Positions 19,377-24,129 of a DNA stretch of 24,129 nt are shown piece by piece. Under the pieces are notes generated by a model. That model was not told the origin of the DNA and did not search any database. It saw nothing but the letters and a program-made list of their open reading frames with translations. The stretch covers positions 1 to 24,129 of the IMG/VR virus record IMGVR_UViG_2623620491_000014. One strand, given 5' to 3'. The stretch's first letter is position 1. Every line of letters starts with the position of its first letter. Position numbers and translations under genes: made by a program. The DNA is from a virus (taxonomy: Duplodnaviria > Heunggongvirae > Uroviricota > Caudoviricetes).

Positions 19377-20869
19377 CCAACTCCGCAAGGTATGTTGTAG
19401 CTTGAGTAATCAATCTCTTTAGGATCTTTGATGTCTCGCATCTGTATTGCAAAACGCCTCATCATGTAGCCATAGCGAACAGCAGAAAGGATGTCGTCAT
19501 TTAGCTTGACGATCTTCCCGTTCTCATCGCGGTGATACAGACGAAACTCTTCAAAGAATGGCTCGCAGGTGTTAAATACCTTGAAACGACCGTCGAGCAT
19601 CATGTCGCGTATCTCTGCTATCCCGGGTTCGACCGCATTACCTCCATCAGGCCATGTTGCATGATCTGGCAACATGTCGAACCCAGCTTCGGCGTATTGT
19701 TCCTTGAGCTGAGCGCCGCCTCCCTTTTCGTGCTGATGCCCGTCATGAGGCCAAGCCGTAGGGGTGTTTTTGCTCCATGCTTTAACAGCACTCCATGCCT
19801 CTGTCGCCTTCTTCTGTTTGGCCTTCCAGACGCGAGAAAGATAAATCACGTCCTCGTCTTTATCCCACCAAAGCTGGATATGTGCCTGTGGGTGATCCCA
19901 TCCGAAGTCCATTGCATTGATGACGTAGAAGTGATCAGGACACTCGAACGGCTGACACTTAATCGTCTCTTCCGGTATCTGGAAGATTCGACCACTACCC
20001 ATCGTAGGAATACCGCGAGCACGCGCCTCTCTCTCATGCTCAGGATAAGATGCGATGATTTGCTCTTTCTGTTCGTCTGTGTAGTGCTCAGCGTCGTAGA
20101 TGGTCATGTTGACCACTTTCTGCGACTTGCTGGGATTCTTCAGGAACTTGGTAACAACGTCAGACATCCCCATCAGCGGGGTAAACGTCAGAATTGAGAA
20201 TTGCCCGTATTTGTTGGTACGGGTAAGGCCTTCACCATAAATGCTGTATGGTGGCTCTTCGTCAAACCACACGCCGTGGATTGTGTCACCCTGCCAGCGA
20301 GCGCGGCCTTGCGAGTATGGTTTGAAGTAGCAGATTGAAATGCCATCTTCAACGCCATCAGCCGTGTGATGCTTAACCAGAAGATGATCAACAAGGTTCG
20401 GAAAGAAAGGAGACTTCTTCCAGCTAATGATGTCCTCTTTCGGTATTGAACCGTAGCCCGGCTCATCATTCTCTTCAATACGACCGCACAGGATGCGTTG
20501 AGTCGTTTTGGTTACCGTCTCGTTTGTCTCGCCGCCAATCCAGAAGACAACAGGCTCATAGAAACGCTTACCTTTCCACTCACCGCCATATTTACCATCA
20601 GCAGGATAGCCTTTTGTGCCCGGATAACGCCCTGTAAGGTGAAACGCGACTTCAGCAGCACCAGTAAATGACTTACCAAGCTGGTTACCAGCCATAAAAC
20701 AGCGCTCTGGATAGTCATGCCCGGCGTCGATGAACTCACGCTGTTTGCTGTATGGCGTAAATTCATATAGCAGGTGTGTGTTCCTGTAGCTCTCTTCTTC
20801 TTCGAGTAGCTCGAGCAATTCGATTTGCTCTTCGTCGCTCAGGTTATCAAGAATCGCGTCCAGTTCCAC
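19373..20869 (-). CDS. Terminase large subunit, P22 gp2-type
   Basis: 498-aa [29 protein letters not shown]...[12 protein letters not shown] (Walker A-like) ..., closely matching P22 gp2 as recalled. Starts at GTG and overlaps the TerS 3' end by 23 nt. Confidence 0.92.
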
Positions 20870-21335
20870 GGTTGAATAGCTCCTTGATACGAGAGCGTCG
20901 CTTATCGCGATCTCCCTTATCAGGTGTCACGTCTTCAACTTGCGACTGCTCTTTGAGGCCCAAATCACGGGCGATGATATTAGCGTTGAGAAGGTCAGCG
21001 GCTGCGCCAGAGAATTTCTGGTCGTAGATGATGTCTTCCGCTCGTGATGTGACGTCAGAAAAACCTTCCATTGACCGGAAGGTTCCCCATGTTTGCCTGG
21101 TGATATCAAGGAAGGTACACAATCCTGAAATAGTCATGGCTCGCATCTTAGGGACATTAGCCTTAATTATTTCTCCCTGATATGAAAATACCTTACCCTC
21201 CCATAGCGGGTTATCATCAGCCCACTCGAAGTATTCACAACAAGCAGCCCACAGCGCCTCAGGCGATTCGAATTTAGGGTTTCGCCCATGACTACTGCGG
21301 GCCTCCCAAAATCGGTTGCCCTTTGGTGCTGCCAT
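20847..21335 (-). CDS. Terminase small subunit, P22 gp3-type
   Basis: 162-aa [41 protein letters not shown]..., same length as and recalled as similar to P22 gp3. Directly upstream of TerL. Confidence 0.9.
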
Positions 21336-21414
21336 ATTGATTATTTCCCTTCTGCTTGCTTATCCCATTCATCGCGGAATTTGGATGGGTTGTCGAAACC
21401 TTGAGTTGCCATGT

Positions 21415-21657
21415 TTATGCTCCGGTAGTGAACAGGTCTAACGCTTCCTTCGATTTACGCACCGCTTCGATAGTGCGGGTCGTGATATCTGAATTAGCGC
21501 CGCCTGACTGGAAGTGAATTTTGAATAGCTCAAGCTTCAACTCGTCAGTACCAATGAACTGAAATGCTTCTTCTGCGGCTGCGTTCTGGTTCATGACCAG
21601 CTTGTAAATCTCTAACTGGAATTTCTGTTCTTCAGTCATGGGAATAATCTCTGCCAT
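21415..21657 (-). CDS. Small hypothetical protein (80 aa), same slot and size as P22 orf80
   Basis: 80-aa ORF with ATG start, between the lysis cassette and terminase genes. No function recognised. Confidence 0.6.
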   Translation of the reverse strand: MAEIIPMTEEQKFQLEIYKLVMNQNAAAEEAFQFIGTDELKLELFKIHFQSGGANSDITTRTIEAVRKSKEALDLFTTGA

Positions 21658-21760: not shown

Positions 21761-22132
21761 CTACTGTTCGCTTAGCTTCTGCTTCAGCAAGTAACCTTCG
21801 AGCATCCAGATTTTGTTTACAGCATTTTGCCGGGCAATCTTCCGACCAATTTCTGCATCAAAGTTTTCCGGGCTTGCACAGGCACTCTCTCCGGTGACGG
21901 TGAAGCCGTTGCGCAGCACCAGGACGCAGAACGTCAGCAGAGAAAGTGATTCGTGCGGCTGGTAGTTTACCTCTCCGCCAGTATGTTTCGCTTTTATGGC
22001 TTTGCCAAAGGCACCATCCTCTGCTGTGAAATATGCCTCCTGAGCAATAATTCCTTCGATATGGTCTGGCGTAACGCGCGGTGCCGTTTTGCCTTTCTCA
22101 ACGATTTCTTTTTCGATTTGCTGGTCGTTCAT
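21761..22132 (-). CDS. Hypothetical phage protein (123 aa)
   Basis: ATG-initiated ORF with consistent codon usage, between Rha and the 80-aa gene. No confident family assignment from sequence alone. Confidence 0.6.
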   Translation of the reverse strand: MNDQQIEKEIVEKGKTAPRVTPDHIEGIIAQEAYFTAEDGAFGKAIKAKHTGGEVNYQPHESLSLLTFCVLVLRNGFTVTGESACASPENFDAEIGRKIARQNAVNKIWMLEGYLLKQKLSEQ

Positions 22133-22258
22133 AATTATGACCCTGTGGAGTGGTTGCTTGATTAGGATGTCTTTCCATCAGTCCGCCACCACAAAGAATC
22201 TTTTTTGCCATAAGGCTGGAGGTTCATCTTTCAGTGGCTGCCAGTGTTATTTCCCCAC

Positions 22259-22876
22259 TTACTGGCTTGGGTTGTTTCGCGGTACTGCCGTAACTGGTTG
22301 CCCAGAATAAATTCCGGTTTCATTATCAAGCCCACCCGTAGATGGGCTTTGGAATGGTCGCTTTGGCAGTCCGGGGATCGATATTTGCGCCTGCTGCTCA
22401 AGCCTTTCGATTCTTGCTATGAGTTGCGGTTTTTTGATCCTGCCCCAGCGGTTCAGCAAGCGTCCTGACATACTGGCAACATCCTTTTCCTTCATGAACT
22501 CCAGCATTAACTCGTTGTGCTCTCTTTGGTATGAGTGAGCCATCTCCATCAGCCTGTCACGCATCCAATTAAATGCTTTGATAAACGCCTCTTTGATGGC
22601 GGCAGCTTTTTTGCCGGTAAACGACATGATGATGTACATCGCGCCGTCTTTGGAAATTTCATATTCAACATACTGATTACCCTTGTGTTCATAGGTAACC
22701 CGCGAAAAGTTGCTGGTTAGAAATTCATCCGAACAGTCTAGCTTTTCGATTTTCTGAATGATGTGGTGATGCTGCTTGTCGAAGTAAGCTGCTACCTTGC
22801 GGGAGGTTGTGATCACGCGATCACCAGAAACAACCACCATGTCCCGGAAATCGAGATTAGCCAATTGATGATTCAT
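22259..22876 (-). CDS. rha: Rha-family phage regulatory protein (antirepressor-like)
   Basis: From the in-frame ATG at 22876: MNHQLANLDFRDMVVVSGDRVITTSRKVAAYFDKQHHHIIQKIEKL...YEISKDGAMYIIMSFTGKKAAAIKEAFIKAFNWM fits the Rha N-terminal domain pattern. The ORF-track extension to 23119 translates to implausible sequence. Confidence 0.8.
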   Translation of the reverse strand: MNHQLANLDFRDMVVVSGDRVITTSRKVAAYFDKQHHHIIQKIEKLDCSDEFLTSNFSRVTYEHKGNQYVEYEISKDGAMYIIMSFTGKKAAAIKEAFIKAFNWMRDRLMEMAHSYQREHNELMLEFMKEKDVASMSGRLLNRWGRIKKPQLIARIERLEQQAQISIPGLPKRPFQSPSTGGLDNETGIYSGQPVTAVPRNNPSQ

Positions 22877-23218
22877 AGCGTCTTTACCTTTTAGAAAGTG
22901 AGCCTGTCTCACAGAAAAGCCGCCCGAGAGAGGTCGCCACCTATAACGGCATTTCTCAGGCTCGCTTACTGAAAGGCTCTCGTTAATATGCGCGTGAGAT
23001 GCGCTGTGAAATTCAGATATAAAAAGCCCCGCGAATGCGAGGCTAAATCCTGGTATTTGTAATGAACTGGCTCTTATCTCAACGCAGCCCCTTACTGCGC
23101 GCAAGATGCTCAATATCAAGCATCAGCAATGAGATATTTAATCTGGATTCACTCCAGAAGTGATCACCACCCTGTCTACAGAGCCAGATGTGAAGGATGA
23201 TGAGTAAAATTATCGCTA

Positions 23219-23656
23219 TCATCGAAGGCATTGCGTCCTGATGTACTCCTGCAGGTAGTTAACCTGCGCGGTTATCTTGTCGATTCCACTTCGGAGACGG
23301 TAATAATTGAGTTCAGCATCTGCTGTAAGTCTTGGGCTTTCTCCATTGCCCATGCCGCTGGCTCCGGTCGTTGACTTTGCACAGGTGGCGGCGACTTGCA
23401 GGCGCTTACGACCAGCAGAAACATCAGCACGGAGACTTTCGATAGTCGCGTTAGCATCAGCAAGCTCCTTTGTATATCTGGCATCGAGTTCTGCTACATC
23501 ACGTTGACGTTTCTGCATGTCAGCGATAATGGATGCGGCCTTATCGCGCTGCTCTTTGTAGGTGATGGCGTTATCACGGTAATGATTGACCGCCCATGAC
23601 AGGCAGACGATGATGCAGATAACCAGAGCGGAGATAATCGCGGTGACTCTGCTCAT
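23219..23656 (-). CDS. Rz: Inner-membrane spanin Rz (i-spanin)
   Basis: 145-aa ORF; N-terminus [34 protein letters not shown] matches lambda Rz. Start overlaps the R stop (ATGA). Confidence 0.92.
23272..23457 (-). CDS. Rz1: Outer-membrane lipoprotein spanin Rz1 (o-spanin), embedded in the +1 frame of Rz
   Basis: Embedded ORF with signal peptide and lipobox ([20 protein letters not shown]) followed by a proline-rich segment ([13 protein letters not shown]), the characteristic Rz1 architecture. Start chosen at the Met preceding the signal peptide. Confidence 0.8.
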
Positions 23657-24129
23657 ACCTCAATCTCTCTGACCGTTCCGCCAGCCTCTTTGAATTTTGC
23701 AATCAGGCTGTCAGCCTTATGCTCGAACTGACCATAACCAGCGCCCGGCAGTGAAGCCCAGATATTGCTGCAACGGTCGATAGCCTGACGGATATCACCG
23801 CGATCAATCATCGGTAAAGCGCCACGCTCTTTAATCTGCTGTAGTGCAACAGCGTCCTGGCTTTTCGGAGAGAAGTCTTTCAGGCCAAGCTGCTTACGGT
23901 ATGCATCCCACCAACGGGAAAGAAGCTGGTAACGTCCGGCTGCTGTTGATTTGAGTTTTGGGTTTAGCGTGACAAGTTTGCGAGGGTGATCGGAGTAATC
24001 AGTAAATAGATCTCCGCCTACAATGACGTCATAACCATGATTTCTGGTTTTCTGCCGTCCGTTATCAGTTCCCTCTGACCACGCCAGCATATCGAGGAAC
24101 GCCTTACGTTGATTATTGATTTCCACCAT
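23653..24129 (-). CDS. R: Endolysin, lambda R-type lytic transglycosylase
   Basis: 158-aa [42 protein letters not shown]..., near-identical to lambda R as recalled. Its ATG is the last 3 bases of the window, so the holin gene lies just outside. Confidence 0.93.

Follow-up and report, generated by a model that had tools for sequence, protein, structure and literature searches.

What is contained in the long non-coding gap that separates the lysis gene Rz from rha in the late operon of a P22-like phage, and what might it do for the gene behind it? The gap was studied in a window of 24,129 nucleotides, which comprises positions 1 to 24,129 of IMG/VR record IMGVR_UViG_2623620491_000014; sequence comparison indicates that the source phage is P22-like, with Escherichia phage Gally as the best match (98.8%). 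The gap is bordered by the Rz stop codon, which ends at 23219, and by the rha ATG at 22876 (minus strand), and it covers positions 22877-23218, that is, 342 nt, exactly as the first-pass annotation had it. It is also unusually long, as was stated there: no larger inter-gene distance exists among the minus-strand late genes, where the others do not exceed 126 nt and are mostly below 20 nt. The sequence of the gap is far from random, and the gap is not empty; it is conserved at 82-100% in 163 phage records found by BLAST, and the region is present in 727 of 5426 complete E. coli genomes. On the gene strand, it consists of three parts, namely a small ORF (A), an intrinsic terminator (B) and a 140-nt leader (C) that extends from 23005 to the rha ATG (Table 1). 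The first two, including an ORF annotated in related phages, had been overlooked at first pass, and the genome papers on phages epsilon34 and Sf101 are silent on the Rz-rha gap.

Table 1. Coordinates of the genes and predicted elements at the Rz-rha locus, in the numbering of the window.
Feature	Coordinates	Strand	Evidence and remarks
Lysozyme R	23653-24129	minus	
Rz (i-spanin)	23219-23656	minus	phrog_13, E 3e-73; Pfam Phage_lysis; upstream border of the gap
Rz1, nested in Rz	23272-23484	minus	PF06085
Small ORF, 50 aa (doubtful gene)	23079-23231	minus	phrog_11822, E 1.4e-37, residues 1-50 of 50; hydrophobic N-terminus
Intrinsic (Rho-independent) terminator, predicted	23015-23044	minus	terminator scan
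H1, 4-bp hairpin GCGC/GCGC, loop AUCUCAC (23000-22994)	22990-23004	minus	MFE folds
Pseudoknot 5' strand, UCUCAC in H1 loop	22999-22994	minus	
A/C-rich linker H1-H2	22978-22989	minus	alignments A3 and A5
H2, long imperfect hairpin, about 90 nt, three parts	22886-22977	minus	MFE and covariance-model alignment
Pseudoknot 3' strand, GUGAGA in H2 3'-side bulge	22907-22912	minus	loop/bulge covariation
Ribosome-binding region	22874-22890	minus	AAGG (22890-22887), spacer UAAAGACGCU, rha ATG (22876-22874)
rha, 205 aa, Phage_pRha + ORF11CD3	22259-22876	minus	Pfam and PHROG matches end at residue 168-173
gp49/66-family gene	21761-22132	minus	
DUF2560 gene	21415-21657	minus	
Small terminase gp3	20847-21335	minus	

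Comparative analysis strongly supports the reading of part C as a structured RNA with two hairpins (H1 and H2) and a pseudoknot. The 231-nt stretch 22860-23090, which includes both the terminator and the leader, has a folding z-score of -2.5, and the predicted stability of the leader fold is -45 kcal/mol. H2 is predicted to be composed of a lower stem of about 20 bp (CCUUUCAGUAAGCGAGCCUG / CAGGCUCACUUUCUAAAAGG), a middle stem (AGAAAUGCCG / CGGCUUUUCU) and an apical stem-loop, AGGU-GGCG-ACCU (22942-22931), and the linker that precedes it is 12-25 nt long in the homologues, with a variable length and a conserved GA at its end. The AAGG is the only Shine-Dalgarno-like motif, located 10 nt before the rha ATG; it forms the last base pairs of H2, where the base helix is CCUUU/AAAGG.

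A core-motif scan of IMG/VR gave 90 distinct homologues with identity down to about 75%, and individual MFE predictions for 20 divergent homologues returned the same fold, often paired better than the window copy. A covariance model, R1, was built, and the base pairs were counted on its alignment: 95.1% of cells were paired, and both sides had changed in 20 of the 37 pairs, compared to a mean of 4.4 after column shuffling and to 4-9 with a slid partner, the slid controls carrying the weight because the R1 alignment is fitted to the structure. The covariation score was 0.116 versus 0.06 and 0.02 in the controls, and covariation was seen in all five helices. The H1 stem was paired in 100% of cells, with both sides changed in three of its four pairs, and the base helix covaried together with the Shine-Dalgarno motif (CCUUU/AAAGG, CCUUA/UAAGG, CCUA/UAGG and CACAUAG/CUAUGUG). 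The fold can be assigned to the sense strand, since G-U cells are in excess over A-C cells (228 and 15, respectively; 95.1% paired in sense versus 87.5% in antisense). The features conserved across subtypes include the junction pairs UG/CA and AG/CU, a tandem U-G pair and a UCU..GGG internal loop; the apical part of H2 is replaced in some copies (type V). RNAalifold, applied to a MAFFT alignment, proposed a distal GAGCC/GGCUC pairing, which was ruled out, as the 3' arm was out of register in that alignment owing to a 1-nt indel; the long-hairpin model is preferred on account of the per-sequence folds and the covariance-model alignment.

The pseudoknot is predicted to comprise 5-7 bp and to join the H1 loop to a bulge of 6-7 nt, located between the middle and lower stems of H2. 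The loop and the bulge change together between subtypes: the window copy pairs UCUCAC with GUGAGA, the epsilon34 type UCGCA with UGCGA and the P22 type CCGCA with UGCGG, and the corresponding pairs are UCACAC and GUGUGA in locus L116, UAGCAC and GUGCUA in L165, CUGACAU and AUGUCAG in L010, UUCUCG and CGAGAA in L044, and UUCGCGU and ACGCGAA in L035 and L110b. Among 15 distinct loop/bulge combinations, 97.8% of cells were paired, a value reached by none of 5000 shuffles. In the extract registered by hand, with the loop as aligned by the model and the bulge left-justified, both sides had changed in six of seven pairs, and 98.3% of cells were paired versus 11-68% after sliding. Compensatory changes were found in H1, in H2 and in the pseudoknot alike.

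The distribution of the leader was assessed by a comparison of 80 IMG/VR loci with near-identical Rz genes, about 56 of which carry a copy after Rz according to R1. The window copy scored 157 bits, and the model also matched diverged copies (45-73 bits, E 1e-8 to 1e-16) at post-Rz loci lacking BLAST similarity. Some phages carry two or three copies; in L085 and L110, a second copy precedes the next gene, about 1 kb further downstream. Other copies are located just after PR' or tR', before HNH endonuclease genes (L010 and L006). The start codon adjoins the 3' end of the leader in all 101 distinct copies, and the proteins encoded downstream comprise Rha, KilA-N (with ORF11CD3 or P63C), ANT/KilAC, P22_AR_N, T5orf172/MUG113 and HNH_3+AP2; the genes behind the leader thus encode DNA-binding proteins of the antirepressor-like kind and nuclease-like proteins that are free-standing. 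The minus-strand frame that stays open upstream of the rha ATG, mentioned at first pass, does exist (from a TTG at 23119) and is non-coding, since the same leader precedes non-homologous genes and carries indels of 1, 2 and 4 nt. The hosts of the 163 phage records with the window subtype include Escherichia, Salmonella, Klebsiella, Enterobacter, Citrobacter, Hafnia and Edwardsiella, and 77 of the records are Stx-converting phages (73 Stx2a and 4 Stx1a). In the 727 E. coli genomes with this subtype (13%), only the downstream CDS is annotated at the leader.

Several copies show individual features. Diverged leaders were found right after PR' in L010 (400-650) and L006 (640-870; in L006, right after the tR' terminator); in both, the leader precedes an HNH/AP2 gene resembling those of homing endonucleases and is located before the lysis cassette. 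In the prophage-like contigs L010 and L035, two tRNA genes are located at 1323-1475, between the HNH gene and the holin gene (Rfam, 55 and 61 bits). The Stx-type phage Lys12581Vzw (L205) has leaders at 1159-1301 and 2525-2668, one before an ant gene inserted between lysozyme R and Rz and the other before rha after Rz.

The Rfam search suggested at first pass yielded no Rfam 15 family that matches the gap: for window positions 22000-24129, the best gap matches were to unrelated models (15-20 bits, E 0.9-4), and those to mir-627, Phe_leader and AbsR28 were dismissed as chance matches to a hairpin or terminator. The gathering thresholds of IsrK (RF01394), isrJ (RF01393), C4 (RF01695), the pistol, twister and hatchet ribozymes and known riboswitches were not reached, and in seven related loci tRNAs alone passed. 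isrJ is a small RNA encoded downstream of an antirepressor gene in Gifsy-1; its model scored 27-28 bits in related loci (threshold 37), over the terminator region and not over the leader. These sub-threshold matches lie at 7238-7305 in L085, between the Rz stop codon and the leader, and at 1359-1429 in L044. The papers on AgvB/AsxR and on the Pas small RNAs concern other loci, and a genome-language-model preprint does not cover the leader. The leader represents a new RNA structure family, which is well supported, within a general kind that is already known, the cis-acting mRNA leader.

Phage P22 itself carries a copy of the leader (nt 21258-21405; 72.8 bits, E 1.4e-16 with R1), which follows gene 15 (Rz) and a terminator and adjoins the rha ATG. 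This copy belongs to a different sequence subtype and has no BLAST similarity to the window leader, but is homologous to it, with the same position and the same architecture of H1, pseudoknot and H2. A small-RNA-seq study of P22 infection published in 2026 reported ten phage RNAs (PMC13397905). One of them, P22F (nt 21301-21389, 89 nt, 2054 RPM in infected cells), ends 6 nt from the rha ATG and is abundant both in infected cells and in vesicles; the paper assigned no function to it and noted only identical copies in other phages, without a family, structure, covariation or pseudoknot (PMC13397905). P22F lies within the P22 leader match and corresponds to its H2 part, starting inside the 5' arm of the lower stem. 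Its accumulation (PMC13397905) argues that the P22 hairpin is transcribed and is unusually stable in vivo, and the hairpin was probably cut out of the late transcript. The structured RNA that the first-pass annotation had considered among its options is, thus, strongly supported, both by the covarying two-hairpin leader with its pseudoknot and by the P22 homologue, which accumulates as a discrete RNA.

Upstream of the leader, part B contains a predicted terminator stem of 8 bp (AGCCUCGC/GCGGGGCU, six G-C pairs, 23044-23025) with the loop AUUC, followed by UUUUUAUAUC, where the U-tract extends to about 23015. A G+C-rich hairpin directly before a U-tract is, therefore, present on the transcribed strand. 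A terminator is annotated at the homologous site in epsilon34, phi80, HK106 and HK639 (as putative in epsilon34, phi80 and HK106), with a predicted stem energy in homologues of about -14 kcal/mol, and this position is occupied by differing stem sequences. A hairpin with a T-run is found at most 70 nt upstream of the leader in 88 of 102 distinct copies.

Another possibility raised at first pass, an internal promoter, finds no support. No sigma-70 promoter (-35/-10 hexamers with 16-18 nt spacing) was detected on the gene strand in 22200-24129, and the sole candidate picked by eye, TTCACA-16-TATTAA, lies where homologues have other sequence or a deletion. Likewise, the IHF consensus WATCAANNNNTTR has no match with up to one mismatch inside 22877-23218, and its count over the window is at chance level. 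Henthorn and Friedman are said to have found in 1995 that rha is harmful to the growth of phi80 and P22 in IHF-deficient hosts, which would fit a need for tight control of rha.

Part A is an annotated, but apparently doubtful, gene. The first-pass annotation had seen no credible ORF in the gap; this cannot be maintained literally, as the 50-aa ORF matches phrog_11822 over its full length and is annotated in relatives, but the doubt about coding holds. When read from the ATG at 23222, the ORF encodes 47 aa (23079-23222) and overlaps the Rz stop codon as ATGA. The family corresponds to Sf6 gene 65 and epsilon34 gp67, is also annotated in Gally and other phages, and is narrow, every member being at least 78% identical. 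The alignment to relatives, proposed at first pass as a way to see whether a gene sits here elsewhere, does reveal an annotated gene in Sf6, epsilon34 and Gally, with doubtful coding status. The pairwise pN/pS in frame is 0.84 versus 0.26-0.38 for Rz. A count of distinct mutations over 35 different DNA versions gave 12 synonymous and 22 non-synonymous ones (omega about 0.7); neutrality is not rejected (P 0.34), an omega of 0.3 is rejected (P 0.0125), and the value is no better than in frame +1, so that a constraint like that on Rz is incompatible with the data, and a weakly constrained peptide is compatible with the test, given the low divergence. Neither purifying selection in frame nor a frame kept intact in relatives was found, with a nonsense variant in L012 and frameshifts in L062, P0029 and P0002. 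The ORF is treated as a doubtful gene because of the missing coding signature, of these variants and of the conservation past the stop codon in a Klebsiella remnant; the segment may be no more than the untranslated 3' end of the lysis mRNA. The remnant, in Klebsiella phage ST13-OXA48phi12.5 (L207, 1085-1280), is a decayed copy of the Rz 3' end and the small-ORF segment with 71% identity; its ORF is disrupted, but conservation is highest in the DNA immediately on either side of the stop codon. The minus strand of window positions 23012-23235, containing the small-ORF segment and the terminator, folds better than shuffled sequences (z = -2.6); the relatives of this segment are at least 92% identical, too similar for a covariation test.

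The three parts are combined differently among the 80 loci: A alone, A with the terminator, the terminator and leader without A (phi80 type) and all three. The terminator and leader block is conserved up to the ATGAA of the downstream gene, where identity ends abruptly, and this mosaic boundary at the start codon occurs before at least ten unrelated genes. Sf6-like loci join window position 23056 directly to 22356, so that 22357-23055, which comprises the terminator, the leader and the first 173 rha codons, constitutes an insertion of about 700 bp relative to these phages. An imperfect direct repeat of 9 nt, CATT(A/C)CAAA (CATTACAAA / CATTCCAAA), borders it on both sides, with junctions at 23056-23064 and 22348-22356. 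As the insertion covers rha codons 1-173 alone, the C-terminal 32 residues of Rha are read from backbone DNA, in agreement with the ends of the Rha profiles (Table 1). The first-pass suggestion of a remnant of a replaced gene is unsupported for the gap itself; the region is nevertheless a mosaic joint.

Late transcription in lambdoid phages depends on Q, which renders the polymerase resistant to terminators. The same logic of the Q-dependent late operon is stated in the epsilon34 paper. Against this background, it seems to us somewhat better than an even bet that the gap is the 5' end of an inserted accessory cassette, the leader being most likely a cis-acting lock on a toxic accessory gene. 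The cassette would be ordered as terminator, structured leader and rha, preceded after Rz by a short, recently spread segment with the dubious 47-aa ORF. The intrinsic terminator would halt any polymerase not modified by Q, and a Q-modified polymerase would pass it and transcribe the leader. This RNA would fold compactly, with the H1 loop pairing with the H2 bulge, and the last helix of H2 would pair the upstream CCUUU with the AAGG Shine-Dalgarno motif, providing a second lock, in cis, that could keep translation of the antirepressor-like or nuclease gene low or let it occur only after RNA processing or with the help of a factor opening or cutting H2. Terminator and leader together would form a double lock on a gene that is harmful when mis-expressed. 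We infer both the Q read-through and the lock on translation or processing, including its direction. Occlusion of the ribosome-binding site is predicted to be partial: the mean unpaired probability at positions -15 to -6 is 0.39 in the full leader and 0.49 without the 5' arm, and in P22-type copies the Shine-Dalgarno motif lies just outside the main helix and is paired only via a 3-bp CCU/AGG extension in the MFE structure. H1 and the pseudoknot exceed the needs of a hairpin that masks a ribosome-binding site, which suggests an additional role, for example, in binding a partner, in signalling RNA processing or in switching. P22F, which is without H1 and ends before the ATG, could equally be a trans-acting RNA or a decay intermediate.

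Of the other explanations, a signal for RNA processing or stability is unlikely, if well worth consideration. Here, RNase III (or RNase E) would cut the near-perfect lower stem of H2 (18-22 bp), separating the lysis mRNA from the accessory-gene mRNA and leaving the stable P22F hairpin; the cut would either free the Shine-Dalgarno motif, as in the E. coli adhE and lambda N leaders, or inactivate the message. The length of the lower stem (18 bp, perfect, in P22; 22 bp, perfect, in L126; about 20 bp in the window), the position of the P22F 5' end and the lack of other obvious punctuation here in a long late transcript are consistent with such a signal, but the P22F 3' end lies about 15 nt past the staggered RNase III cut to be expected, the consensus ends from small-RNA-seq being imprecise, and H1 and the pseudoknot would be left unexplained.

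Slightly less probable again is a sensor or binding site, that is, an aptamer of the riboswitch type or an operator bound by a phage or host protein, where binding would stabilise or open the Shine-Dalgarno helix. Many riboswitches and autoregulatory operators have a compact, pseudoknot-closed fold directly on the ribosome-binding site, as here; the conserved junction pairs, tandem U-G pair and internal loop point in the same direction, as does the partial occlusion by the hairpin alone. However, few of the unpaired nucleotides stay the same in all subtypes, type V copies have another apical part, no ligand or protein candidate emerges, and the gap has no IHF consensus. Autoregulation by the product is unlikely, as the downstream proteins are unrelated to one another. 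A broader proposal, that the H1/H2/pseudoknot RNA is a new signal-sensing regulatory class, responding to a small molecule, protein or processing enzyme and timing the antirepressor-like and nuclease genes, is a long shot that we would not discard; if true, it would imply that more than one-tenth of E. coli genomes carry a switch relevant to the cross-induction of prophages and to conflict between phages.

The view of the P22F paper, that the released hairpin is a trans-acting small RNA, which might act on host or phage mRNAs or on sister leader copies, appears improbable. It would account for the abundance of P22F in cells and vesicles and for the two or three copies in some phages, and it has a precedent in IsrK of Gifsy-1 (PMC4825925), but almost every base of H2 is paired, with no obvious free seed, and conservation concerns the structure and its placement against a start codon rather than a single-stranded sequence, the subtypes diverging greatly in sequence with the fold kept. 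An IsrK-like trans mechanism was rejected, since a check by eye revealed no complementarity between the pre-terminator RNA and H2 and the modules assort independently. A self-cleaving ribozyme was also rejected: P22F begins within a regular helix, there is no conserved core, and no ribozyme model matches.

Modification of the polymerase, as by the put RNAs of HK022, or an effect on termination at or after the adjacent terminator is very improbable: a two-hairpin RNA in a lambdoid operon, placed right after a terminator in 86% of copies and in one type after tR', would suit it, but the leader is transcribed after the adjoining terminator and so has no effect on it, 14 copies have no terminator, no gene-strand terminator follows in the window, and late operons already use Q. 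Hardly any credence can be given to the notion that nothing beyond the terminator has a function and that the conservation stems merely from a mosaic joint that has recently spread horizontally or from an attC-like folded-DNA recombination site, as, despite the identity above 90% of module A and much of type I and the independently assorting modules with sharp boundaries, diverged subtypes without BLAST similarity keep every helix, including the pseudoknot, by compensatory changes, the G-U asymmetry indicates a one-strand RNA, the RNA is seen in vivo in P22 and no recombinase is associated; the covariation largely refutes it.

The preferred reading, a cis-acting lock on the accessory gene, has its closest functional precedent in the IsrK/orf45/anrP locus of Gifsy-1, where a terminator is followed, on read-through, by the stably folded and translationally silent leader of an antirepressor-like gene (PMC4825925). 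Both loci are situated in the Q-dependent late region of a lambdoid prophage. IsrK (RF01394) is, however, non-homologous to the leader, with no Rfam match at E up to 10, and acts via an upstream 45-codon ORF and a terminated short RNA in trans, whereas the window leader directly adjoins its gene. Control of ant-type genes at the RNA level is also exerted in temperate phages by c4 of P1 and P7 (RF01695) and by sar of P22. Those are antisense or trans-pairing RNAs of immunity regions, whereas the window leader is a sense-strand element of a late operon. In T-even phages, a hairpin containing the Shine-Dalgarno motif limits the translation of inserted, potentially harmful genes (I-TevI, seg and mob). 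HNH and T5orf172/GIY-YIG-like genes are found behind the window-type leader as well, but the T-even hairpins are short, gene-specific and opened by internal late promoters, in contrast to the 140-nt homologous module before unrelated genes. In lambda sib/tI, the N-leader RNase III sites and the E. coli adhE leader, cleavage of long imperfect hairpins changes the expression of the adjacent gene; the sib, N and adhE leaders have no sequence relation to the window leader, where cleavage is suggested by the P22F 5' end. The rha cassette can also be compared to the lambdoid moron, an extra unit between conserved late genes, as the term of Juhala et al. (2000) is cited in PMC2629481. It shares the insertion with sharp boundaries; a moron, however, has its own promoter upstream and a terminator downstream, whereas the rha cassette has a terminator upstream, no detectable promoter and no terminator found after rha.

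The late operons of lambda- and P22-like phages are among the best-studied transcription units, yet the leader is absent from Rfam 15 and unannotated in the phage and E. coli records examined. Stx2a-converting phages of pathogenic E. coli carry it as well. The leader marks the 5' boundary of an exchange hot spot for antirepressor-like (Rha, KilA-N and Ant) and nuclease genes, and may bear on how temperate phages silence dangerous cargo in lysogens and dose it in lytic growth. P22F gains a structure, a family and a testable role.

The comparison also bears on existing annotation, including the questionable 'gene 65' peptide. In the P22 record (AF217253; L206, 2027-2632), the GenBank start of ORF201 (rha), nt 21326, lies inside H2; this start looks mis-called, as the family alignment and the P22F paper place it at about nt 21396. 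Another small RNA from P22 infection, the 204-nt P22G (PMC13397905), has a counterpart downstream of the cassette: the minus strand of window positions 22166-22291, which takes in the last part of the rha ORF and the 126 nt that separate it from the next gene, is 96% identical to P22G positions 59-186. This stretch is backbone sequence, present in Sf6-like phages without rha, and contains a weak Rfam match to Proteo-phage-1 (22236-22271, 16.8 bits, E 7).
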